NCBI GenBank assembly: GCA_965205905.1
Contig: CBDBHZ010000013.1
Coordinates: 209,571-273,570 of the forward strand
Origin: Alphaproteobacteria bacterium
GTDB lineage: Bacteria > Pseudomonadota > Alphaproteobacteria > JABAAW01 > JAHZMA01
DNA: 64,000 nucleotides
Direction of reading: 5' to 3'
Numbering within the stretch: position 1 is the stretch's first letter; each line of letters opens with the position of its first letter. Below are positions 27,944 through 56,840 of this stretch, one piece after another. Under the pieces are notes generated by a model. The model was not told the DNA's origin. It was given only the letters and a program-made list of their open reading frames with translations, and ran no database searches. A program made the translations under genes and the position numbers.

Positions 27944-29584
27944 ATGAGTGCTATTGACGTCTTAACCCAAAAACTATCAGGCAGTAACAAGCAAAAAGCA
28001 TGTGATTGTTGCGAAAAACTTGCCAAACGGCAATCTGTCTCACCCAATATCGTGAAAGATGCTTATCAGCAAATCAACAAAAGCGCGCCCAATATCACCG
28101 ATAGGCAGGCATGCGATATGCTGATAACCCTATTCGTTAAGGGCGAGGCTTTATCTACCAAAGAAGAGGAAATCTTAAAGTTTCTTAATCAATCAACCAA
28201 AACCATCACCCAAATATCGCAACCCATGCAGTTTGCGCCCATTTTTAACATTGTGCAGAAAACCAAAAACCAACCAAATTATTTCCGCCCATTAGGTAAG
28301 GTGAATCAGTTTTTCAATCATTTAAGCAACCAAGCCGATTTTAAGAAACTGCTAACGGCGGTCGGCTCTTTATCTCTCACCAAGGAAGAAATCACTGAAT
28401 TGATGGCGGCGCAATATCAGCCAAACTATAGCCCTTCATCACGCACCGATGGGTTAATTAAAGCCATTGATAGAGCGGGAAAGCTTTCGGCACTGCCCGA
28501 AAAAGCGTTTCATAATCTCACCACCCATATCGGCAAAAAGTTTAAGTTTAGCGATATTAATATCAAAAATTTGCAGACTATAGAAAGTGGCAATAAAGGC
28601 AACGATGAATTAAATAATGCACTTTACAACGCCTTTCAGGATAAAAGCAATATTCAATATATGCCGAAAAAAACCAGAGAGCTGTTGCAACCCATCCATA
28701 ATGAGATTCTGAAAGCAAAGATGGAGGATTACACTAAAACTATTGGCACACTTAATGTTTCGCCATCGGTGCATACGCGATTACATGGTTATCAGGCTTT
28801 GTTAATCGATATAGAACAGGGCAAGAAAAAGCCTAGTACGGCTGACCTTGAAAAACTTAATTTGCTATATAATGAATTAAAAAGCCTTGGCAAGCTTGAT
28901 GCCATGCCGAACCGCACGCAAGCCTATCTAGAAAATTACCGTCTGGAACAAGATTTGAAGAAGAAAGCCCCGTTGAATGTTGGTAAATTGCTGGAAAAAT
29001 TAAAACGCGGTGAGACATTGGGAGTTTTTCAAGCTTTTTATCTCAGCAGTCATGCGCCAGATGAGCTTAAAAAACACTGGAAAAATGAAAAAAACCAAAA
29101 ACAATTAGAAACATTATCAAAAGATGTGCGTGATAAGGCGGCAGAAATCAAGAATTTAGATAAATCTGCATTGCTTGAGAGTTTCGAGAAAATCATCGAG
29201 CAAATTCGTGCCGAGCAAGGCAGGGCATCTAACCGCAGATTCTATGTTCCTGCATTGGGCGTTTATATCCAACTTACTGGAAATTTTATGGAATTGCGCT
29301 TCAGGAATAAAGATTTTGGCGGAGTATATAAAGAGACGATGAAGCAAGTAATTAAAGATTCAAAAGATAAAAGTTTGGATGAAATTACCAAAAATCTGCA
29401 ACAATTCAAACTTGTCTATCACAGAGGTTTGGATTTTACGGGTGCCAATCTTAAAACCGATGGCAGTGTGCGCTATATCAAGGATAGTGAGGTTAACCCG
29501 ACAATTTCAAAGGTGTTGGATGTTTCAACGAAAACAACAAGAAGTGGCAAAAAAACCAAAGCCATCACTATTTTAGAAATATAA
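27944..29584 (+). CDS. hypothetical protein (546 aa) with no recognisable domain
   Basis: AGGAGG Shine-Dalgarno 7 nt upstream of the ATG at 27944. The ORF is AT-rich and its stop overlaps the next start. Confidence 0.5.
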   Translation: MSAIDVLTQKLSGSNKQKACDCCEKLAKRQSVSPNIVKDAYQQINKSAPNITDRQACDMLITLFVKGEALSTKEEEILKFLNQSTKTITQISQPMQFAPIFNIVQKTKNQPNYFRPLGKVNQFFNHLSNQADFKKLLTAVGSLSLTKEEITELMAAQYQPNYSPSSRTDGLIKAIDRAGKLSALPEKAFHNLTTHIGKKFKFSDINIKNLQTIESGNKGNDELNNALYNAFQDKSNIQYMPKKTRELLQPIHNEILKAKMEDYTKTIGTLNVSPSVHTRLHGYQALLIDIEQGKKKPSTADLEKLNLLYNELKSLGKLDAMPNRTQAYLENYRLEQDLKKKAPLNVGKLLEKLKRGETLGVFQAFYLSSHAPDELKKHWKNEKNQKQLETLSKDVRDKAAEIKNLDKSALLESFEKIIEQIRAEQGRASNRRFYVPALGVYIQLTGNFMELRFRNKDFGGVYKETMKQVIKDSKDKSLDEITKNLQQFKLVYHRGLDFTGANLKTDGSVRYIKDSEVNPTISKVLDVSTKTTRSGKKTKAITILEI

Positions 29585-30264
29585 TGAAAATAACTGATAA
29601 GATGCGGTTAACCAGTTTTAGGCATCTCTCTCAATCCTTTGTTGTAAAAGGGCAAATCATCAGTAGCACCCATAAAATTGGCTCTGTTATGAAAGATGAT
29701 GGCACAAATGAACATTCCCATATTGAACAAAGAATTGTTGATTTTGCCAAAGTAAGAGAAGCAGTAGGCGCAAATAATAAAGAAATCATTAATGATGCCA
29801 TCATCAATTACCTCAACACACATATTGAAAATAAATGGAAGGAGAGACGAAAAGGTGAGTTTAAGCAATCTGAATTTCTAAAAACAATCAATCCCATGTC
29901 GAATATTGGTGAGAAAGATTTTGTTGGTCTATTTGCGCCATCTAGCAATATTGCCAATCAAATCCGCATCTATGCCAAAAAAGATTGGGATGAACGCGCT
30001 AGTAATATTATCAAAGCCAATAATGCCAACACTGTTGACGAAATTTATAAGGCAATTCATAGTGCCACCTTGCGTGATATACTCACCCTAAAAGCCATGA
30101 TTGATGTGCTATTAAGAATGAAATTGATGTTAGAAACAGTTGGTGAAAAAACTGATTTCTTAAACAAGACCATTCAAAAAGCGCAAAAAACGAAACTGGA
30201 TTTAGAGGATTCTTTTGAAAAAATATTTAAAAACATGAAAATCAAATTCATTGAACAAAAATAA
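29584..30264 (+). CDS. hypothetical protein (226 aa), translationally coupled to the upstream ORF
   Basis: ATAATGA stop/start overlap and an AT-rich sequence. Confidence 0.5.
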   Translation: MKITDKMRLTSFRHLSQSFVVKGQIISSTHKIGSVMKDDGTNEHSHIEQRIVDFAKVREAVGANNKEIINDAIINYLNTHIENKWKERRKGEFKQSEFLKTINPMSNIGEKDFVGLFAPSSNIANQIRIYAKKDWDERASNIIKANNANTVDEIYKAIHSATLRDILTLKAMIDVLLRMKLMLETVGEKTDFLNKTIQKAQKTKLDLEDSFEKIFKNMKIKFIEQK

Positions 30265-30302
30265 AATTTGACAAATTTTTTCCTTTCAACTAAGATGGTA
30301 AG

Positions 30303-30867
30303 ATGAAATATAAAGCATCTTACCATACTTTTTTCACTGTTAGCTATTCTAACATACGTTGTGATATTGCCAGTAAAAAATATTAATGCAACTGACGCTG
30401 AAAAAGCTGATGTGCAACATTTATTTTTTAAAACTTTTTTGGACATGACATATTATAGTCTTGGGCTGAATGATAATATGGATATTGCAAAAGAAATTCT
30501 AAAATTAGAAGATTTAATCGCGCAAGGCGCCAACCCAAATAAAAAATTTGTATTCCCTAGTGACAGTGATGGAGAAAGTTTGGTTACACCTATATCTTAT
30601 ATATTTACGACATGTCGTAATGATCATTACATAGAGGATGCTGGTGGTAAAAATTTTTATTTAGAAATTATAAAATTATTGATTGATAATGGCATAGAGT
30701 GGAATGCTAAAATTTATTACGAAAACGATGATGGCACTTCAGGGTCATATACCATTGCCGATAGAATCAGATGGCTAGAAGAAAATCCGAGCAACAAACC
30801 AGAATGTATCGAAGCGCTAGCTTATGTCAAAACCCACCTCAAAGAAAACAACATCATCATTGAATAA
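30303..30867 (+). pseudogene. secreted short ankyrin-repeat-like protein, paralog 1 (N-terminal frameshift)
   Basis: Conserved promoter and hairpin upstream. The ATG at 30303 is followed by a 1-bp insertion (aaatATaaag versus aaatTaaag). The remaining ORF 30361..30867 retains the ANK-like core and the PECIEALAYVKTHLKENNIIIE tail. Confidence 0.55.
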
Positions 30868-30914
30868 TAAAACCTCGCGGTTGCTCAACACAAAAACCGT
30901 GCGTGTCGCGATAC

Positions 30915-31082
30915 ATTAATATATGGTGGGCTTTGCGGAGTTGGTTTATATATCAAGGGGGGTGCGAACGCGCTTTATCGGTCGCGAGACTTACGTCCGC
31001 TTCCTTGCGCTTTCGGTTTGCCCTTGCACCAATGGCGGGCAAACCTCACCCTTAATAATCCCCCCGCTGTGTTTAATACTGG
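30915..31082. repeat. MITE-like repeat copy
   Basis: atatatggtgggctttgcgg...gcgaacgcgctttatcggtcgcgagacttacgtccgc...ccccccgctgtgtttaatact. Confidence 0.7.
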
Positions 31083-31161
31083 CGGTGGAGTGTATCGCCC
31101 CATACCCCCACGAACAAAAATAAAGTTTGACAAATTTTTTCTTTTCAACTAATATGGTAGG

Positions 31162-31795
31162 ATGAAATTAAAGCATCTTACCATATCTTTTTTAACATTC
31201 GCTATTCTATCATATGTTGTATTTATGGTGATAGAAAATAATGCTGTAATAGAAGCTGAAAAAATGGCAGAAGCTAGAAAAATTGAAAAAGCTCTGATAG
31301 CTGAAAAAATGATAGAAGCTAGAAAAATTGAAAAAGCTAATGTGCAAAATTTATTTGATAGACTTTTTACAGAAACGATACGGTATACTTATGGGCTTGA
31401 TTATGATACCGATATTCCAAAAGCAATTTTAAAATTAGAAAATTTAATTGCACAGGGTGCCAATCCAAATAAAAGAATCATACACGCCGTGGATGGTAGT
31501 GGTTATGTGGATACACCTATATCTTATACTTTTCTTGCATGCAATAATGATAGTTATATAGATGATGCTGATGGTAGAAATTTTTATTTAGAAATTATAA
31601 AGTTATTGATTGATAATGGTGTGGATTGGAATGCTAAAAATTATTATGAGAGCGAAGATACTTCAGGAACAACAAACTATTGCTGACACGCTCAAAAGAA
31701 TGGAAGATGAAGCTGAAAAACGTAACCCAGAATGTATCGAAGTGCTAGCTTATGTCAAAAACCACCTCAAAGAAAATAACATCATCATCGAATAA
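31162..31795 (+). pseudogene. secreted short ankyrin-repeat-like protein, paralog 2 (internal frameshift near 31610-31686)
   Basis: Signal anchor, an EARKIEKA repeat insertion, the ANK-like core, then a frame switch into the conserved C-terminus. Confidence 0.55.
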
Positions 31796-31873
31796 TAACC
31801 GATTATTGGGGTTATTCGCAATCAGTGGTAACAGATATTTGACAAACCTAATTCTATAACTTAATATGGTAAG

Positions 31874-32479
31874 ATGAGAGTAAAATACCATCTTACCATA
31901 TTTTTTTCACTATTCGCTATTCTAGCATATGTTGTATTATTGCCAGTCAAGAATATTAATGCAACTGAAGCTAGAAAAGCTAAGGCAATAGAAGCTGAGA
32001 GAATTGCAAAGGCTAGAGAAGCTGATGTGCAAACTTTTTATGAAATTTTTTTAGATATAACGCAAAGTGGTTATGGAATTGATTCTGATATGTATACTGC
32101 AGAAACAATTTCAAGGTTAGAAACTTTAATTGCACAGGGTGTCAACCCAAACAGGAGTTTTGAACTCCCTAGTGACGGTTATGGAAAAGGCTTTGTTACA
32201 CCTATATCTCATATACTTCTTACATGCACTAATGATAGGTACCTAAATGACGCTGATGATAGAAATTTTTATTTAGAGATTATAAAATTATTGATTGATA
32301 GCGGTGTGAAATGGAATGCTAAAAATTCTTATGATGGCTATCATTATGGTGAATCAGGTGAATCAACCATTGCCGATAGCCTAAGATGGACAGAAGAGAA
32401 CGCGCATAAACCAGACTGTCTCGAAGCGATAGATTATGTCAAAACCCACCTCAAAGAAAATAACATCACGCTAGAATAA
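31874..32479 (+). CDS. secreted short ankyrin-repeat-like protein, paralog 3
   Basis: N-terminal hydrophobic anchor, the ANK-like LIAQGVNPN...TPISHILLTC...EIIKLLIDSGVKWNAKN, and a conserved C-terminus. Confidence 0.6.
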   Translation: MRVKYHLTIFFSLFAILAYVVLLPVKNINATEARKAKAIEAERIAKAREADVQTFYEIFLDITQSGYGIDSDMYTAETISRLETLIAQGVNPNRSFELPSDGYGKGFVTPISHILLTCTNDRYLNDADDRNFYLEIIKLLIDSGVKWNAKNSYDGYHYGESGESTIADSLRWTEENAHKPDCLEAIDYVKTHLKENNITLE

Positions 32480-32525
32480 TAAAACCTCGCGGTTACTCAA
32501 CACAAAAACCGTGCGTTTCTCATCA

Positions 32526-32690
32526 CATTAATATATGGGGGCTTTGCGGTTTAGGTTTTATATATCAAGGGGGGGGGCGAACGCATTAATTTATGGGGGG
32601 CTTTGCGGCATACGCTTTGGCGGTTATGTCCGTAGGACAACCGCCACGCGATGACGCCCCCCATACCCCCCACCGCTGTGTTTAATACTC
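32526..32690. repeat. MITE-like repeat copy (variant internal module, G10 tract)
   Basis: Shares termini with the other copies. Confidence 0.6.
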
Positions 32691-32729
32691 ATATCTAGCT
32701 TGCCTTGATAATTCTTACCTAAATAAAAT

Positions 32730-32790
32730 TTGACAAATTTTTTCCTATAACTTAATATGGTAAGATGAAATTAAAGCATCTTACCATATT
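32730..32790 (+). promoter_or_regulatory. conserved promoter (TTGACA-17-TAATAT) plus a start-codon hairpin of ank paralog 4. The same module sits at 30268-30330, 31127-31195 and 31839-31905.
   Basis: Perfect -35 hexamer, 17-bp spacer and a -10 six to seven nt before the ATG. The inverted repeat atggtaagATG...catcttaccat encloses the start codon. Confidence 0.6.
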
Positions 32791-45867: not shown

Positions 45868-45961
45868 GTAGTTTTTGCACTATTTTATAATGCAATTAAA
45901 GATTGCAAATAATACTTTTTCATATATTATATCATGAATATTGCTGATAGGAGGAATAGGA

Positions 45962-46612
45962 ATGAATAAAGATAATGAAACAGACTCAAATAAAGAAACA
46001 GCGAAACCCAAAGGCATCATGAGCAAATTACGTTCAATCTTTGATTTTATCAAGCAAGCATATATAGTTGCTAAGCAAACATTTGCATTTATCAATAAAA
46101 TTGGCGATATTATCGGCACGGTTAGAAAAATCATCATGGGGCTGAATCGAACGCTGGTGATTGTAACTTTGTTTATTTTTGTTAGCACAGCGGGCTTTCA
46201 AGGCTATGAAGAATATAAAAGAATAAGAAGACTTATTGAAAAAGTTGAAGGTTATATTGATGAATATAAGGCAAAGGCAGACCAAATAGAGAGGGATATT
46301 GAAAATTTGCGCGATGATTTTCGTAAATTTGAAATAGAATTCAAAGGCAAAGCCCGTGCCGCCAAGCAAAAATTGGAAGATGACATAGATGCCACCAAGC
46401 AAGAGTTGAAAGATAAAGCCGATGCCACCAAGCAGGAATTAAAGGCAAAAGAACAAGAATTGAAAGATAAAGCCGATGCCACCAAGCAGGAATTGAAGGA
46501 TAAAGAACAAGAATTACAGGATAAAGAGAGGGAATTGAGTGATAAGCTTCAAAAAAATAAAGATAAATTAGAAGAAGATAAGAAAAAGTTAAAGAAACTG
46601 CTTGATAGATAG
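45962..46612 (+). CDS. membrane-anchored coiled-coil protein with tandem 18-aa (54-bp) repeats
   Basis: AGGAGG RBS before the ATG at 45962, one TM helix (LVIVTLFIFVSTAGF), then KDKADATKQELKAKEQEL repeats encoded by near-identical 54-bp DNA units at about 46417-46530. Confidence 0.55.
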   Translation: MNKDNETDSNKETAKPKGIMSKLRSIFDFIKQAYIVAKQTFAFINKIGDIIGTVRKIIMGLNRTLVIVTLFIFVSTAGFQGYEEYKRIRRLIEKVEGYIDEYKAKADQIERDIENLRDDFRKFEIEFKGKARAAKQKLEDDIDATKQELKDKADATKQELKAKEQELKDKADATKQELKDKEQELQDKERELSDKLQKNKDKLEEDKKKLKKLLDR

Positions 46613-49306: not shown

Positions 49307-49330
49307 AGCACCGCAACCCACGCCATCGGC

Positions 49331-49425
49331 AGTATTGAACACAGCGGGGGGGGGGCGTCATCGCGAGCTGATTGGCGCACCGCCAGAATCAGCAAAGCGT
49401 ATGTCGCAAAGCCCCCCATATTATT
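49331..49425. repeat. MITE-like repeat copy (short, G10 tract)
   Basis: Termini only. Confidence 0.5.
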
Positions 49426-49632
49426 ATGTATCGCAAAACGCTAGATGCTAATGCTGACGAATCTTGAAACACGCACCGCCTATGTGCTACACACCGCCGT
49501 TATTCCACACGTCTGAAAAAAATTAAGATGATGCGACTATAAAGGGTTAGGGTAAAATGCAAATATTCTTTAGATTATTTAGTCTATAATGAAAATATCT
49601 CTTTACATCAAATGTAATGTTGTCTTACACTA

Positions 49633-50319
49633 ATGCAGTGGTGTTGGTTTATTGAAAGGTTACTTACTTTTATGTGGGATAGAAAAAAAATATTTGAAAG
49701 ACTGATAGGCTATATTATTTTTATGCCTGATACAAATAATTTTTTAAAAAACCTAATTAGTAAAAATTGGATACTTATATCTTGTGTTCTTTTTGGTGGG
49801 CTTTTCTATTTTTTATTTTTCTCTTACTTTGATGTATCACCGCACCCCATACTTAATTCTAAAATAAAGTATGAAAATGATATAAATGTTAATGATTTAG
49901 TCACCATTCTTTTAACTGCCGTTACAGTTGTTTTAACAGCAGTAGCTGTTATTATAACGCTTTTAGCTATTTGGGGATATAAAAATATCAAAAAAGAATC
50001 AATTGATAAATCGAGTGAAAAATCAATTGAACGTGTTGAAAATAGCATGAGAGAAGGTGGTGAATTACACAAACTTTTAACAAGTAGAATAAAAACAGAA
50101 TTTACAGAATATGCTCCAATTCAAGATTACATTGATGGTATTGTGAGTAGAGCTGTAGAGACTAAAATCGAAGAACATAATGCTAAATTTGAAGAAAACA
50201 TTTATGATGCTATCATGGAAAACGTAGAAGATAAAATTACAGAACATGATAGTATTATTGATAATAAAATTGCTAAGGCAATAGAAGAACGCCACCATGA
50301 TGGTAATATAGACTATTAA
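49633..50319 (+). CDS. two-TM membrane protein with an acidic coiled-coil C-terminus (island gene 1)
   Basis: Very AT-rich ORF ending 13 bp upstream of the ImmA-like gene. Confidence 0.45.
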   Translation: MQWCWFIERLLTFMWDRKKIFERLIGYIIFMPDTNNFLKNLISKNWILISCVLFGGLFYFLFFSYFDVSPHPILNSKIKYENDINVNDLVTILLTAVTVVLTAVAVIITLLAIWGYKNIKKESIDKSSEKSIERVENSMREGGELHKLLTSRIKTEFTEYAPIQDYIDGIVSRAVETKIEEHNAKFEENIYDAIMENVEDKITEHDSIIDNKIAKAIEERHHDGNIDY

Positions 50320-50331
50320 GAGATATAAAAA

Positions 50332-50847
50332 ATGACAGAAATTAAAAAAAATCACTCTAAAGAATGGAATAATTTGCCTGAGAAAACACAGGACATCATT
50401 AAGAAATATCAAAAGGTTGATATGCCAAAAGTTCCTGTAGGTAAAATTGCACAAGAGTTGGGATTAATAGTAAAATCTTCTTCTTTACCTGTCCGTATAT
50501 CAGGTGAAATACGCCCAGATGGAAATGAATTTATTATCCGCATCAATAGGCATGAAGCGAAACAACGTCAACGCTTTACCTTAGCCCATGAAATATCTCA
50601 CTATTTGTTACATAGAGATAAAATTAACGATGGTATCGAAGATAATGTGCTATACCGTTCTCAACTTAGCAATATTCAAGAACATGAAGCCAATCGCCTT
50701 GCCGCTGACATTCTTATGCCATGGGAAATTATAGAAGCGCAGTTAGAAGGAAAAAACAAAGATGATGAAAATACTATTGAAGAAATAGCCAGTGTTATGG
50801 AAATTTCTACTGTTGCCCTAAGAATTAGGTTAGGTATTAAAATATAA
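50332..50847 (+). CDS. ImmA/IrrE-family zinc metallopeptidase (island gene 2)
   Basis: HEISHYLLH (HEXXH) preceded by the typical ImmA/IrrE N-terminal region; 171 aa. Confidence 0.7.
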   Translation: MTEIKKNHSKEWNNLPEKTQDIIKKYQKVDMPKVPVGKIAQELGLIVKSSSLPVRISGEIRPDGNEFIIRINRHEAKQRQRFTLAHEISHYLLHRDKINDGIEDNVLYRSQLSNIQEHEANRLAADILMPWEIIEAQLEGKNKDDENTIEEIASVMEISTVALRIRLGIKI

Positions 50848-50849
50848 AG

Positions 50850-51968
50850 ATGGTGGATTTCAAAAATATTCCATATATACCTATTTTAACAACACGACCT
50901 GCAGAGCTTACTGCTTTACGCGAGTTACCTACTAGTGATAAAAAGAAATTGATGCCTGCAATACAATTACGACCATGGCTAACTTCAAAAGAATTTGATA
51001 ACACAATTGCTAAAATAGACGAAGCCTATGGCAATAATAGAGAATGGATAAGCAATCTTGATGAATATTATGAAGAACCACTGCCAAACCCAGAACAACC
51101 ATCCAAAGACACAAGACCTGCAATAACAACTTTTAAATCGCTTTTAGAACCTGCAAATGGTTATGAGAATTGGTGTGCTTTTGTTGAAAAACACCCTAAT
51201 ATGATACCATGTGTGCAATTAAGCGCAATAGAACAACTTGAAGAACAACTAAAAAAACTCTTAAATTTAAACCGTGGTGTTGTTTTCCATCTCGATGGAA
51301 AACATAAAGAAAAATTACAAGAATATAAAAATAACTTTGATATAATCTTTGAAATTCTTAAGAAAAACCAAGCAGCTTCAAATATTCTTTTTATTATTGA
51401 TTTTAAAACAATTACAAACACACAAGATATTTTAATCCTATTCGGTTATTGGAACGACCTTATTACGAAAATATTGAAAAATTCTTATAGCATTGCAATT
51501 TCAGGGACAAGTTTTCCATCAAGCTTTACAGATGCGCCACTTAGTCTGGCAATAAAAGAAAGAAAAATATATGAACTTATAAATAATGATAATAATGGTA
51601 ATATTATTTATAGCGACAGGGGTAGCACACGTATCAATGAGAAAAGGCAACAAGGTGGTAGCAAACCAATACCGCGTATAGATTATCCCGTTAAAAATGA
51701 CTGGCATTTCTTTAGAGAAAATAAAGAAACTAATTATAATACGCTTGCCAAACAAGCCATTGAATCTAGTAATTGGGATAATAAACTATTCCTTTGGGGA
51801 ACAGAATTAATTAAAGCTACTGCTAGTTCCAATAAATTGTTAGATATAATCAGTAGCCCAGTAAAAGCTACTGCTGTAAGAATTAATATCCACCTGCATA
51901 TGCAACTATTTTATAACGATGATGATAGTAATGCCTATTTAGAGACGGATGATGATTGGGAAGATTAG
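50850..51968 (+). CDS. hypothetical 372-aa protein (island gene 3), translationally coupled to the ImmA-like gene
   Basis: 3-bp intergenic gap and AT-rich sequence. I recognise no domain. It should be compared with the Pfam Beta_protein family. Confidence 0.45.
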   Translation: MVDFKNIPYIPILTTRPAELTALRELPTSDKKKLMPAIQLRPWLTSKEFDNTIAKIDEAYGNNREWISNLDEYYEEPLPNPEQPSKDTRPAITTFKSLLEPANGYENWCAFVEKHPNMIPCVQLSAIEQLEEQLKKLLNLNRGVVFHLDGKHKEKLQEYKNNFDIIFEILKKNQAASNILFIIDFKTITNTQDILILFGYWNDLITKILKNSYSIAISGTSFPSSFTDAPLSLAIKERKIYELINNDNNGNIIYSDRGSTRINEKRQQGGSKPIPRIDYPVKNDWHFFRENKETNYNTLAKQAIESSNWDNKLFLWGTELIKATASSNKLLDIISSPVKATAVRINIHLHMQLFYNDDDSNAYLETDDDWED

Positions 51969-51972
51969 AAAG

Positions 51973-52710
51973 TTATTTTTCGCCAATAGAAATTGGGTTG
52001 CCAAAAATATTTTCTTTTGATTGTAGTGAAAGATAATACATATACATATCATCACATTCTTGTTCCTGATTAACGACTCTTGAATGATATGGATATTTTC
52101 TTAATGAATTTATATCGTCTATATTAATATCTCTTGACACAAGCGCTTCTTTAACCTGATTTGTGATTTCGCGGTGTTGATTTTTTAATTTTTGTAAAAC
52201 ATGTTGACGTAAAATTGTTGCACTTAAACTCATAGCTAAATTCTGTAACTCTAACCTTTTACAATGACTCGCTTTAATTTTATTTTTGGACAAAATCGTT
52301 TTTAAGTCTGCAACAGTGAGCATTTTTATCAAAATGGTTTTATTCAATAATTTTTCTGATTTGCCTTTTCTTATTACCTTAATTCCCTTTTCAGGGCAAA
52401 ACTCCCATACAGCAACTTTTTGAGGTGTGGTATTTAATACATGTTCAGAATGGCAAGGCGCACATATGATATGAAGCTTATCACAAAATTTTAGAAAATC
52501 TTCAACTTGCCCTGATAGACGAGATAAATTATCTGCCTCTGTTTTTATCTCAAAAAAGTATAAAGAATTATTGATAAGAGCAATATCAATCCGCCTTGCA
52601 AAAGAATCAACAACCAATTCATTTGCAATAAAATTATCATTTGTATGATTCTTTTCCAGCAAATATTGAATAAGTTTTGCTTTTACCAGTTTTTCGTGTC
52701 CATTTCTCAT
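51973..52710 (-). CDS. PD-(D/E)xK nuclease-like protein (island gene 4, convergent)
   Basis: ELVVDS...RIDIALINNSLYFFEIK fits an E/D...D...ExK restriction-endonuclease-fold motif. Confidence 0.45.
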   Translation of the reverse strand: MRNGHEKLVKAKLIQYLLEKNHTNDNFIANELVVDSFARRIDIALINNSLYFFEIKTEADNLSRLSGQVEDFLKFCDKLHIICAPCHSEHVLNTTPQKVAVWEFCPEKGIKVIRKGKSEKLLNKTILIKMLTVADLKTILSKNKIKASHCKRLELQNLAMSLSATILRQHVLQKLKNQHREITNQVKEALVSRDINIDDINSLRKYPYHSRVVNQEQECDDMYMYYLSLQSKENIFGNPISIGEK

Positions 52711-52761
52711 AGTCTAACTATATAGCATTAAAACTATTAATGTAACAAAAAAAATTCTACC

Positions 52762-52789
52762 TTGCATTTCCACCGCTAACCCTATATAC
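52762..52789 (+). promoter_or_regulatory. candidate sigma70-type promoter (TTGCAT-15/16-TATATA) facing a gene-free region
   Basis: Near-consensus hexamers. Downstream there are only two intrinsic terminators and no ORF. Confidence 0.3.
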
Positions 52790-53020
52790 TTACATCATCG
52801 TTTGAAAAGATTTCGAGCGTGGGGCTTAGTAACCTCTTACATAATTCGGTTGCATCAATCGATATTGACGCTTTTTTCGTTACATTGTAATTTGCGTCAA
52901 GGATGCACCGTTCTCAGCTTGGCTGGGAAGCGGTGCTATATGTCCAAGCGCCTTGTTTTTTAATATTGTGCCAAAAAGCGTCGCGCCGTTTTTAATTATG
53001 TAAGCGGTTACTAATTCCCA

Positions 53021-53048
53021 GCTACTAGAGTTTTCTAGTAGCTTTTTT
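53021..53048 (+). terminator. intrinsic terminator hairpin with T-tract
   Basis: gctactagag-ttttc-tagtagc followed by tttttt. Confidence 0.5.
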
Positions 53049-53128
53049 GTTGATGCCTTGAAATTCTGTGCATTGATGAAACGCTTATTTGGTTAACAAC
53101 CGCTAATACAATAAAAACGGCGCGACTT

Positions 53129-53163
53129 CACCCCTCATTATTTTTGATGAGGGGTGTTTTTTT
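53129..53163 (+). terminator. intrinsic terminator hairpin with T-tract
   Basis: cacccctcat-tatttttg-atgaggggtg followed by ttttttt. Confidence 0.6.
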
Positions 53164-53251
53164 GATGGCGGTGTTTGTTGCAGGTGTATAATACATAGGG
53201 CGGTGCATGGGTCGAGATTCGTCAACACAAAAACCATGCCTGCCTCCACAC

Positions 53252-53395
53252 ATTAATTATATGGGGGGCTTTGCGGAGTCGTTTTATGTATCAAGGGGGG
53301 TGCGAACGCGCTTTATCGGTCGCGAGACTTACGTCCGCTTCCTTGCGCATACCCCCCTTGATAATCCCCCCGCCGTACCAAATACTGGCGGTGGT
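53252..53395. repeat. MITE-like repeat copy
   Basis: Canonical core. Confidence 0.7.
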
Positions 53396-53439
53396 GAGTG
53401 TCTCGGTTACACAACACGCAGGCGGTGCGTTTCTCTCAA

Positions 53440-53889
53440 TCAATACAGCGAACGTAAAATTATTTTCATTTCTATGATAATTTTTACTTTCACATCATCA
53501 CATTTCTGTTTTGATATTTTGATACTATTTTTATCCGAGATATTATCATCAAGATGGCTATCATTAGCGCATGTTATAAGAAACTTCTTATATTCTATTT
53601 TACCACGATATGGTATTCTTAAAAATGTTCGTTTATTGTTAAACGCATCAACCAACGCATCTAATTCAGCAGATTTAATTTTCAATAAACGCCTATATTC
53701 ATTTAATGCCTGCGTGCTCACTGTGTCTTTATCAAGAAATATATTATCCCATTCGCTCAAAAGTTCCATTGATTTACTCATGATTTTATCCGCAAGTGTA
53801 TTCAAAGCATGTAAGCGCACGCTCAAATAATGGGCAACAAAAACACTGGTTACGGCAACAATAATGGATATGATGCTTTGATATAACAT
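53440..53889 (-). CDS. hypothetical membrane-anchored protein (149 aa)
   Basis: N-terminal TM helix in an AT-rich islet between two MITE copies, paired with the upstream DUF4325-like gene. Confidence 0.4.
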   Translation of the reverse strand: MLYQSIISIIVAVTSVFVAHYLSVRLHALNTLADKIMSKSMELLSEWDNIFLDKDTVSTQALNEYRRLLKIKSAELDALVDAFNNKRTFLRIPYRGKIEYKKFLITCANDSHLDDNISDKNSIKISKQKCDDVKVKIIIEMKIILRSLY

Positions 53890-53908
53890 GACTTAATTGA
53901 TAAAAAAA

Positions 53909-54286
53909 TCAGGAAGCTTGCTTATATTCTTTAAATATGTCTTTTATCATCTCGGCATATCGGGGGGTTTGTTTAGATATAAGAACAATATTTTTATATG
54001 GCATATTCATATCAAATAATTTTCCAAATGATTCATCTACAAAAGGAAAGAGATAGCCATCTGTGTCATCTAAATCAATAATCAGTTTCTCACCCTTTTT
54101 GAGGTTTTTCAGCGCAGGAATTAGAACATTATCTCTAAATTCTTCGCCCGAATTACGCCCTTGCCAACTGAAACGCGGACCGGGTGAAGAGCTAAAATCT
54201 TTAGCAATTTTGATAGTGTGAGGCATTTTTTTACCCTCCTGATTGATAATAATATTTAATTTACCAAAATTGAGAGTATTTTGCAA
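53909..54286 (-). CDS. DUF4325-like (STAS-like) small protein
   Basis: 125 aa with the pattern ...GEKLIIDLDDTDGYLFPFVDESFGKL, like the DUF4325 STAS-like family. Confidence 0.4.
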   Translation of the reverse strand: MQNTLNFGKLNIIINQEGKKMPHTIKIAKDFSSSPGPRFSWQGRNSGEEFRDNVLIPALKNLKKGEKLIIDLDDTDGYLFPFVDESFGKLFDMNMPYKNIVLISKQTPRYAEMIKDIFKEYKQAS

Positions 54287-54293
54287 GACATTA

Positions 54294-54495
54294 TATTATA
54301 TGGGGGGCTTTGCGGTTTAGGTTTTATCTATCAAGGGGGGTGCGCTTTCTCAACAGCGTTTATTGTATCAAGGGGGGGGCGGTCGCGCTTCTCGATGCGC
54401 GCTTGTCAAATTTATGTCCGTTGGACAATTTGCCAAGCAGACGCCTCTTGCGCGAACCCCCCTTGATAATCCCCCCGCCGTACCAAATACTAGCG
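54294..54495. repeat. MITE-like repeat copy (variant module, G8 tract)
   Basis: Termini plus the internal module shared with 33375..33610. Confidence 0.65.
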
Positions 54496-54611
54496 ATAGT
54501 GTAAATTGCTGTTACACAACACTCTGGCATTGCGTATCACGAAACTCTTGCGTGAATAAATCCATTATGCTACACTGATAGGCTATTTTATTTATCAGCA
54601 GGAGTTTTACC

Positions 54612-55640
54612 ATGACCACTTCACCAGACTCATACGCCATTGCCGTATTAGGCGCGACAGGTAATGTTGGGCGCGAGATGCTTGCCATTTTGGCAGAGCG
54701 CGATTTTCCAATATCGCAAGCATACGCATTGGCATCGCAAAAATCAGTCGGACGGCAGGTGAGTTTTGGCGATAAAGACCTCGACATCCAAGATGCCGAT
54801 AGCTTCGACTATTCCAAAGTGCGCTTGGTATTCTCATCAGCGGGCGCGGCAATTTCTGCCAAACTTGCCCCAAAAATCACGGGTGCAGGTGCGGTGCTGA
54901 TTGATAACACCTCGCAATTTCGTATGGATGAAGATGTGCCACTTATTGTGCCAGAGGTGAATCCGCACGCGCTTAATAATTACAAAGCGCGCAATATCAT
55001 CGCCAATCCAAATTGTTCCACCATTCAAATGGTGCTGGCATTAAAGCCAATCCACGATGCTGTGCCAATCAAACGGGTGGTGGTTTCTACCTATCAGTCG
55101 GTTTCGGGTGGCGGCAAATCCGCAATGGATGAATTGTTCAATCAAACGCGCGGAATTTACGTCAATGATTCCCCAACGCGTGAGCATTTCACCAAGCAGA
55201 TTGCGTTTAATGTGATACCGCATATTGATAGTTTCATGGATGATGGTGCCACCAAAGAAGAGTGGAAAATGAAAGTTGAGACCCAAAAAATCATGGAAGC
55301 CGATATTGCAGTCCATGCCAACTGTGTGCGGGTGCCTGTGTTTATCGGGCATGGCGAGATGGTGAATATTGAGTTGACCGCGCCGATGAGCGACACCCAA
55401 GCAACTGAAATTCTGATGGAAACTGAAGGCTTGGTGGTGATTGACCATCGCGCTGATGAGGGCTATCCAACCCCTATTGAAATTGCGGGCGAAGATGGCG
55501 TTTATATCAGCCGTATCCGCGAAGATGATACCGTGCCATACGGGCTTTCAATGTGGGTTGTGGGCGATAATCTCCGCAAAGGGGCTGCGTTAAATGCGGT
55601 GCAGATTGCCGAAAAAATGCTAGAAATGAAACTGCTATGA
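54612..55640 (+). CDS. asd: aspartate-semialdehyde dehydrogenase
   Basis: 342 aa with VLGATGNVG and the NCSTI active-site Cys. Confidence 0.9.
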   Translation: MTTSPDSYAIAVLGATGNVGREMLAILAERDFPISQAYALASQKSVGRQVSFGDKDLDIQDADSFDYSKVRLVFSSAGAAISAKLAPKITGAGAVLIDNTSQFRMDEDVPLIVPEVNPHALNNYKARNIIANPNCSTIQMVLALKPIHDAVPIKRVVVSTYQSVSGGGKSAMDELFNQTRGIYVNDSPTREHFTKQIAFNVIPHIDSFMDDGATKEEWKMKVETQKIMEADIAVHANCVRVPVFIGHGEMVNIELTAPMSDTQATEILMETEGLVVIDHRADEGYPTPIEIAGEDGVYISRIREDDTVPYGLSMWVVGDNLRKGAALNAVQIAEKMLEMKLL

Positions 55641-56840
55641 GCGATGATATTGCAGACAATATTATCCCATGTTATGGGCGGTTTCCGCTACGTTTTGTGC
55701 GGGGCAAGGGTGCCTATATCTTCACCGAAGATGACACCCCCTATCTGGATTTTGCCTCTGGCATTGCGGTGAATGCGCTGGGGCATAGCGATAAGGGTTT
55801 GTGCGATGCGCTCCGCAGTCAAATTGATACTATATGGCATTGCTCGAATCTCTATCATATTCCACAACAGCAAGAATTAGCCACCATGCTGGCAGAAAAA
55901 TCATTTGCTGACCGCGTGTTTTTCTGCAATTCAGGGCTTGAAGCCAACGAAGCCATGATAAAATGCGCGCGCCGTTACCATTATGAACGTGGCGATAAAA
56001 ACCGCAATGTGATACTCACCTTAAGCGGTGCGTTTCATGGCAGGTCGCTGGCAACATTGGCGGCAACGGGCAACCCCACAATATCTTGAGGGTATGGGTC
56101 CGACTCCGCAAGGCTTTAAGCAGGTGAAACGTGATGATGTCGCCACAGTGGCAGCCGCGATTGATGATAAAACTGCCGCCATTTTGGTTGAACCCGTGCA
56201 GGGTGAGGGCGGGCTATATCCGTTATTGAACAATGATTATTTGAAGCAGTTACGAAGCCTTGCTGATAGGTCTGGTATTTTGTTACTGTTTGATGAGGTG
56301 CAATGCGGTGTTGCGCGCACGGGTAAATTATGGGCGCATCAACATGCGGGCATCAGTCCTGATGGTATGAGTTTAGGCAAAGGGCTAGGCGGTGGTTTTC
56401 CAGTGGGCGCGTTTTTGGCAACCGAGAAACTAGGCACAGCGTTAAGCGCAGGCACACATGGCAACACATTTGGCGGTAATTATCTGGCGATGACGGTGGC
56501 GAAACATATTATCAGCACAGTTAGCAAGCCCGATTTTTTAGGCAATGTGGTGAAGCAGGGGCAGGATTTAAGCGCAAAGTTACAGCAATTATGCCAAAGC
56601 TTTCCCGATATGATTACCGAAATTCGGGGCATGGGGCTGATGCTTGGTATCAGGCTTGCCGATGATTATAGCAATAAAGATTTGGTGGCGGGCTTGCATC
56701 AGCAACAGATGCTGACTGTGCCAGCGGGCGATAATGTGGTGCGGTTACTGCCACCATTAAATATCGGCTCTGATGTGCTAGATGTGGCGGAACAGAAACT
56801 TGGTAACGGATTAAAGGCGTTACAAAAAGGAGGTGCATAA
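55637..56840 (+). pseudogene. argD: acetylornithine aminotransferase, split by a frameshift near 56028-56089
   Basis: N-terminal ORF 55637..56089 and C-terminal ORF 56028..56840 (LLFDEVQCGVARTGKLWA with the PLP lysine region) together cover ArgD. Confidence 0.75.

Follow-up and report, generated by a model that had tools for sequence, protein, structure and literature searches.

Two anti-phage systems are the closest described relatives of the genes treated here. In gop-beta-cII of phage P4, gop (133 amino acids) is followed 2 nucleotides downstream by beta and then by a convergent cII gene, whose product is annotated by NCBI as a member of the sce7726 family. The P4 cassette protects Escherichia coli against phages lambda and P1. 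In the absence of Beta, which neutralizes it, Gop is toxic (PMC9122126). The P4 cassette also mediates the cell death that is set off by orf184, an accessory gene of a coliphage (bioRxiv 10.1101/2023.04.06.535777). The second system, PD-lambda-2, has three components: a HigB-like protein, an Xre-M78 fusion whose overexpression is toxic, and a Beta-like protein on which defense, but not neutralization, depends (Vassallo et al. 2022, PMC9519451). Here, we describe an AT-rich island of four genes on the alphaproteobacterial contig CBDBHZ010000013.1, within a window of 64 kb, by which the whole stretch of analyzed DNA is meant. The island encodes a small membrane protein (gene 1), a minimal M78 peptidase of the ImmA/IrrE type (gene 2), a Beta protein (gene 3), and a cII/sce7726 nuclease-like protein (gene 4). 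Its membership in the Beta/cII defense family, with P4 gop-beta-cII as the founding member, is well supported by sequence comparison. A preliminary description of the same DNA had proposed an uncharacterized cassette type; the island is instead an undescribed four-gene variant of this known family.

The four open reading frames (ORFs) are intact and together span 49633-52710 (Table 1). Gene 3 matched the Beta_protein family (PF14350) with a Pfam E value of 3.3e-48 and the PADLOC "beta" model with 2.2e-38, and its product was 27% identical to P4 Beta (BLASTP, E = 2e-28). Gene 4 matched the sce7726 family (NCBIfam, E = 2e-36) and the PADLOC "cll" model (2.2e-49), with 34% identity to P4 cII (BLASTP, E = 4e-30). 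Gene 2 was assigned to Peptidase_M78 (PF06114, Pfam E = 3.3e-19) with 69.3 bits against a cut-off of 22. The family guesses of the preliminary description were thereby borne out. Its suspicion of a defense-type cassette also gained ground, since Beta and cII are homologous to components of the anti-phage P4 system. It had, however, found no arrangement to name for Beta and the nuclease, and this is the layout of P4 gop-beta-cII. As in P4, a small protein with two transmembrane (TM) segments comes first, Beta starts 2 nucleotides after the preceding gene, and cII converges on the 3' end of the Beta gene. Genes 1 and 2 are separated by 12 bases, genes 2 and 3 by 2 bases, and the stop codons of genes 3 and 4 by 4 bases. 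The tight operon proposed earlier for genes 1-3 thus stands, although the gaps of 13 and 3 bp given for it were start-minus-end differences.

The island also differs from both systems. Directly upstream of beta, the M78 peptidase takes the place of a Gop-family protein and separates the membrane gene from Beta. The gap of 4 nucleotides between Beta and cII leaves no room for a terminator, whereas P4 has an annotated terminator at this site. The combination of an M78 peptidase and a Beta-family protein in one operon resembles the B and C parts of PD-lambda-2. Gene 3 matched the PD-Lambda-2_C model at 5e-13, which is weaker than its match to the P4-type beta model. Gene 2 matched PD-Lambda-2_B at 7.2e-9 over positions 291-374 of the 402-position model; it has the peptidase domain of that protein without the Xre-type helix-turn-helix (HTH). 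No island protein matched HigB or PD-Lambda-2_A in Pfam, NCBIfam, or PADLOC, and the island has a membrane protein and a cII nuclease, unlike PD-lambda-2. The individual components, and two of their pairings, were already known. As judged from the searchable literature and models, the four-gene combination, the membrane-protein family, the minimal peptidase, and the Beta tail motif described below are new. The four-gene form is not described in PADLOC-DB 2.0, and no paper on it or on the mechanism of Beta or cII was found in the searchable literature.

The conservation of the arrangement was assessed in a scan with one genome per species, which yielded 35 loci with a Beta like that of the window. 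Plasmids, viral contigs, and contig look-ups contributed additional loci. In 39 of 39 distinct loci with enough flanking DNA, the membrane protein gene is followed by the M78 peptidase, Beta, and a convergent cII gene; this count describes the Beta subfamily of the window and not all Beta proteins, because the loci were retrieved by motifs of the subfamily. With this scope, the co-occurrence that the preliminary description had asked to be examined is observed. Three of the membrane genes were missed by phmmer and recovered by eye; they have the same conserved TM segment and GY(R/Q) junction. The hosts include Micavibrio, Brevundimonas, Sphingomonas, Ancylobacter, and Neorhizobium among the Alphaproteobacteria and Vibrio, Pseudomonas, Alteromonas, Shewanella, Acinetobacter, Morganella, and others among the Gammaproteobacteria, and copies were also present on plasmids and viral contigs. 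The cassette is widespread in Proteobacteria. A profile of the Beta subfamily retrieved 1,488 clusters at 50% identity with E values up to 0.001, and 299 with E values up to 1e-30. The Beta and cII genes overlap at their 3' ends, by 4 nucleotides in about 18 loci; elsewhere the overlap reaches up to 55 nucleotides. Distance matrices computed pairwise for each of the four proteins were correlated with one another (r = 0.68-0.84, Mantel p = 0.001). Mean identity was highest for the peptidase (50%), followed by Beta (41%), cII (30%), and the membrane protein (23%). In Sphingomonas sp. 7/4-4 (NZ_CP115960.1, locus L025, 3982-4992), a single ORF of 336 amino acids encodes both the membrane protein and the M78 peptidase, a fusion that may be taken as a weak sign of physical association between the two; cII of this locus is truncated to about 127 amino acids. 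Partial or decayed copies were seen in Symbiopectobacterium (L034) and in locus L039.

The genes next to the cassettes include HipAB, Mrr- and HNH-type restriction genes, integrases, AlpA, primase, and relaxase. Copies on plasmids and beside relaxases and integrases would suit an addiction (toxin-antitoxin) module that stabilizes mobile islands or plasmids and has no role in phage defense. The first account of Gop and Beta presented them as a pair of the toxin-antitoxin kind (PMC9122126). We consider this explanation improbable. Both the P4 relative and PD-lambda-2 protect against phage experimentally (PMC9122126, PMC9519451), and a simple pair would have no need of a peptidase and a nuclease whose active sites are invariant. 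The window cassette itself is surrounded by housekeeping genes, and neither an integrase nor a replicon that it could stabilize is present.

In the gene 1 protein, two hydrophobic helices are followed by a Lys-rich junction (GYKNIKK) and then by a tail that is helical and acidic. The second TM segment and a GY(K/R)xIK junction are conserved in 27 homologues. These align from Met31, corresponding to the ATG at 49723 and a protein of 198 amino acids, and the 228-aa product is missing from the protein collection, in which the other three island products are present. ATG 49723 is probably the true start; the assignment is uncertain. By the positive-inside rule, both termini of this inner-membrane protein would be in the cytoplasm. 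No curated family match was obtained for it in the libraries searched, Pfam, NCBIfam, and PADLOC among them. A relationship to Gop was considered and rejected. BLASTP gave no alignment, hhalign assigned a probability of about 1%, and the PADLOC gop model, which finds P4 Gop at 4.8e-70, found no gene 1 homologue at E values up to 1. Gene 1 and P4 Gop have the same position and architecture (two TM segments and a helical tail) without detectable relation. The position of gene 1 is therefore occupied by a new membrane-protein family, one not described in the searchable literature or models.

Two more distant cassettes were examined for comparison. Pasteurella phage Pmp11 (OR544128.1, locus L054, 3095-5387) carries a three-gene cassette of the P4 type, with a 131-aa protein, Beta, and convergent cII. 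The 131-aa protein has two hydrophobic segments and a helical tail and is missed by the PADLOC gop model. In the genome of this temperate phage, the cassette follows immediately after the CI repressor gene, and all three genes are annotated as hypothetical. On the Azospirillum ramasamyi plasmid NZ_CP029836.1 (locus L041, 2005-5810), a distant Beta and an overlapping convergent cII are accompanied by a divergent operon encoding a sigma-70 family factor, a 141-aa protein of no assigned function, and a full-length CapP-like peptidase (PADLOC capP, 1.7e-62). Taken together, the P4, Pmp11, and window examples indicate that the first position is filled by fast-evolving small membrane proteins, with Beta and cII as the stable core. 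A search for P4 Gop among plasmids gave no match, and a search for P4 Beta among viral contigs returned only near-identical copies of P4.

The founding example in P4 and the relative beside a phage repressor gene could indicate that the island, which is AT-rich and flanked by repeats, is the remnant of a decaying P4-like satellite or prophage and no longer functional. This is very unlikely. The island retains four full-length ORFs, invariant catalytic residues, and tight coupling, and the truly decayed copies in Symbiopectobacterium and locus L039 look different. The island has no integrase, tRNA, or phage gene next to it, and no capsid, replication, or cos-linked gene in its vicinity. Its left flank consists of two amidohydrolases and a Rieske protein, and its right flank of asd, an argD-like gene, and argF.

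In gene 2, the zinc-binding motif HExxH (H86-E87-x-x-H90) is invariant in 30 homologues. The best PADLOC match was CapP (5.6e-29), covering positions 8-150 of the 242-position model. The nearest solved relatives were IrrE (3dte), CapP (7t5t), and similar proteins of 291-393 amino acids. The IrrE and CapP structures comprise 291-301 residues compared with 171 in gene 2, and neither an HTH domain nor a C-terminal sensor domain was found in the gene 2 protein. Gene 2 can thus be described, from its sequence, as a bare ImmA/IrrE catalytic zinc metallopeptidase module. The mode of action of ImmA, IrrE, and CapP is the cleavage of a partner protein, in many cases close to the C terminus of the partner. 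As the gene 2 peptidase is devoid of the extra domains of IrrE and CapP, its control would have to come from a partner, for which the translationally coupled Beta is the obvious candidate.

The catalytic domain with HExxH is common to gene 2 and the peptidases of the CapH/CapP, ImmR/ImmA, and DdrO/IrrE switches. Unlike in these peptidase-repressor switches, no HTH substrate gene is present, and no regulon of the SOS type or of the cyclic oligonucleotide-based antiphage signaling system (CBASS) is adjacent. For CapH/CapP in particular, the CapP match is partial, and no HTH or CBASS gene was found in the island or its flanks. An IrrE/CapP-like stress switch, in which DNA damage would lead the peptidase to control the expression of cII as a nuclease of repair or degradation, independently of phage, draws on the same closest solved relatives and on the Azospirillum variant, where a full-length CapP-like peptidase is paired with a sigma factor. 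Such a switch is nonetheless hardly credible here, considering that the cassette has no HTH repressor or other transcription factor, that gene 2 is reduced to the catalytic module, and that the membrane protein and Beta would be left unexplained. The neighborhoods across loci are moreover defense and mobile-element contexts.

RosmerTA (RmrT/RmrA), whose logic the preliminary description had seen in the island, likewise places an M78 peptidase beside a putative toxin. Genes 1 and 2 could accordingly be a RosmerTA-like membrane toxin and ImmA peptidase-antitoxin, with Beta and the nuclease as unrelated passengers; the membrane gene is directly upstream of gene 2, which matched the RmrA models at 1e-10 to 3e-5. 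These matches were confined to the peptidase part. RmrA is an HTH-peptidase fusion of about 360-400 amino acids in a two-gene operon, whereas gene 2 has no HTH, is less than half as long, and belongs to a cassette of four obligate genes. Beta and cII were present in all 39 loci and co-vary with genes 1 and 2, and the Beta/cII core is common to P4, Pmp11, and the Azospirillum plasmid, where the upstream partners vary. Membership in RosmerTA did not hold up, and a passenger role for Beta and cII is highly improbable.

The AlphaFold2 model of Beta is a TIM (triosephosphate isomerase) barrel with a predicted local distance difference test (pLDDT) score of 92.3. About 25 residues, many of them charged, are invariant across 71 sequences, which points to an active site or to a conserved surface for binding. 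A sequence search for solved structures returned none for Beta or cII. At the very C terminus of Beta, an acidic and aromatic tail, T-D/E-D/E-D/E-W-x-D, is near-invariant in the four-gene cassettes. Within the 71 sequences, Thr366 and Trp370 are nearly invariant and Asp372 is invariant. The tail was modeled as disordered, with a pLDDT of about 60 over the last residues. The Beta C termini of 34 loci were compared with those of P4, Pmp11, and Azospirillum. P4 and Azospirillum Beta are without the tail, and the Pmp11 protein ends in ...EEMKDWSYE, where only the D-W pair is kept. Because this conserved terminal linear motif was found, among the compared loci, only where an M78 peptidase is present, it stands out as a candidate site of docking or cleavage.

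For gene 4, a single-sequence search for homologues found only the protein itself, and a profile search found its relatives. Glu31, Asp42, and the E54-x-K56 motif are invariant in 31 and in 53 homologues; together with the HExxH of gene 2, the motifs read from the sequence in the preliminary description were thus confirmed. The model has an N-terminal PD-(D/E)xK nuclease fold, followed by a helical C-terminal domain. Gene 4 combines the restriction-endonuclease-like fold and the catalytic motif that define the PD-(D/E)xK superfamily. A subset of cII proteins carries a C-terminal (I/L)FG-x-x-P motif, e.g. KENIFGNPISIGEK, namely the window's cII and those of loci L002, L004, L007, L021, L024, and L031; other subfamilies are without it.

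Overall, the island is probably a defense cassette of the abortive-infection or toxin-antitoxin type, with a membrane effector, Beta as neutralizer or sensor, the peptidase as a switch, and cII as a nuclease arm or DNA sensor, and the four rival explanations weighed above are all less likely. From the layout, genes 1-3 would be co-transcribed and translationally coupled, and cII is oriented toward them, so that the transcripts can overlap. The two-TM protein, by its position and architecture, would be the killing effector at the inner membrane, like Gop. Beta, by comparison with P4 and PD-lambda-2, would keep the effector silent and respond to infection. The sensor-less peptidase may be the switch. 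Upon a cue from the phage, a partner would be cleaved and the effector released. The most likely target would be the disordered C-terminal tail of Beta, and the alternative target would be the acidic cytoplasmic tail of the gene 1 protein. The PD-(D/E)xK nuclease cII would be active and serve as a second arm or a DNA sensor.

Several observations weigh against this reading. In PD-lambda-2, the peptidase is itself toxic and Beta is not the neutralizer, so the roles, which we infer for each of the four proteins, may be distributed differently here. The effector role of gene 1 is by analogy, as homology to Gop was not detectable, and the substrate of the peptidase is a candidate only. The invariant polar residues of Beta suggest an enzyme, and structure searches with Beta return generic TIM barrels only. 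The membrane protein-peptidase fusion is a single case, in the locus with truncated cII, and the 39 loci represent one Beta subfamily. No experiment on any four-gene cassette was found in the searchable literature. A more specific scheme is protease-gated membrane killing, in which Beta, perhaps an enzyme, would restrain the peptidase until infection leads to cutting of Beta or of the gene 1 tail and frees the two-TM effector, with cII acting in parallel. We put this scheme forward tentatively, as a possibility less probable than the general reading.

Table 1. Positions of the island genes, the Beta tail, and the flanking repeats in the 64-kb window
Feature	Position	Strand	Length	Basis	Remarks
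Gene 1 (membrane protein)	49633-50319	+	228 aa as ORF	ORF call	
Gene 2 (M78 peptidase)	50332-50847	+	171 aa	ORF call	
Gene 3 (Beta)	50850-51968	+	372 aa	ORF call	
Gene 4 (cII/sce7726)	51973-52710	-	245 aa	ORF call	
Beta C-terminal tail T-D-D-D-W-E-D	51945-51965 (codons)	+			Acidic and aromatic end motif
Left MITE/REP-like repeat copy	~49320-49480	-			GC-rich; core ~49320-49424, terminal 20-mer 49405-49424 (-)
Right MITE/REP-like repeat copy	53199-53433	+			Core 53256-53433; inverted relative to the left copy

The base composition of the island agrees with the preliminary description. The GC content of 49500-52760 is 30.6%, compared with 42.5% for the whole window and 46-49% for the flanking housekeeping genes, and no other 3.26-kb stretch within the window is lower; over the longer span 49500-53200 of the preliminary description it is 31.8%. 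Across loci, the GC content of the cassette was below that of its flanks in 31 of 31 cases, with a mean difference of 10.8 points. Horizontal acquisition of the island is probable. A second stretch of low GC content (about 35%) is located at 28.4-33.4 kb (28400-33400) and contains three copies of the repeat described below. At 45941-46612, a low-GC ORF of 223 amino acids has strong strand skew and no Pfam match. Both regions may be further acquired DNA. On the right side of the island, the argD-like class-III aminotransferase gene is split into the overlapping ORFs 55637-56089 and 56028-56840 (within 55637-56840), which match the N- and C-terminal parts of one Pfam model; the split is a frameshift, a pseudogene, or a sequencing error.

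The island is bracketed by two copies of a repeat resembling miniature inverted-repeat transposable elements (MITE) or repetitive extragenic palindromes (REP), as reported in the preliminary description. These copies are real, yet the repeat is not special to the island. Its terminal 20-mer occurs 8 times in the window, compared with 0.02 occurrences expected by chance, and the 8 copies lie at 30918, 32588, 33377, 42517, 49405, 53256, 54295, and 61035. The elements are roughly 100-240 bp long, GC-rich, and mostly intergenic, with several length variants, and their conserved end reads A(T/A)TATATGGGGGGCTTTGCG. An extra 29-nucleotide stretch is common to both sides of the island in inverted orientation (49452-49480 and 53199-53227). 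Because the repeat is common between the genes of the window, a reading of the flanking copies as the ends of a composite transposon was rejected.

Between the cII gene and the right repeat copy, the segment 52711-53250 is non-coding, with a GC content of 40%. It contains two strong intrinsic terminators on the plus strand (53020-53050 and 53129-53165) and a 27-nucleotide inverted repeat (52820-52846 and 52994-53020). An Rfam search of 52650-53300 gave no significant match. The segment could encode a small RNA or provide terminators for the operon of genes 1-3 after antisense reading through cII. Beyond it, a second AT-rich islet of two genes (53440-54286, minus strand, 31.9% GC) lies between two direct MITE-like copies (53256-53433 and 54295-54538). 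The product of one gene, of 149 amino acids, has a hydrophobic helix at its N terminus and matches no family; the other gene encodes a 125-aa DUF4325/STAS-like protein (Pfam, 2.7e-8). Plasmid relatives of the STAS-like protein are annotated beside genes for an "ATP-binding protein", and no such gene is present at the islet.

The four-gene form links two validated systems, since it joins the Beta/cII core of P4 to the peptidase of PD-lambda-2. It offers several leads for the family, namely the sensor-less peptidase, the Beta tail, one natural fusion, and the invariant nuclease site of cII. PADLOC-DB 2.0 recognizes beta and cll in the island and its gop model misses gene 1, so that system-level annotation may miss the cassette. 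To our knowledge, ImmA/IrrE peptidases are so far known for cleaving HTH repressors. If protease-gated killing were true, it would be a new mode of action for these peptidases, and it would provide the first mechanistic handle on the Beta/cII family, including P4 gop-beta-cII and PD-lambda-2.

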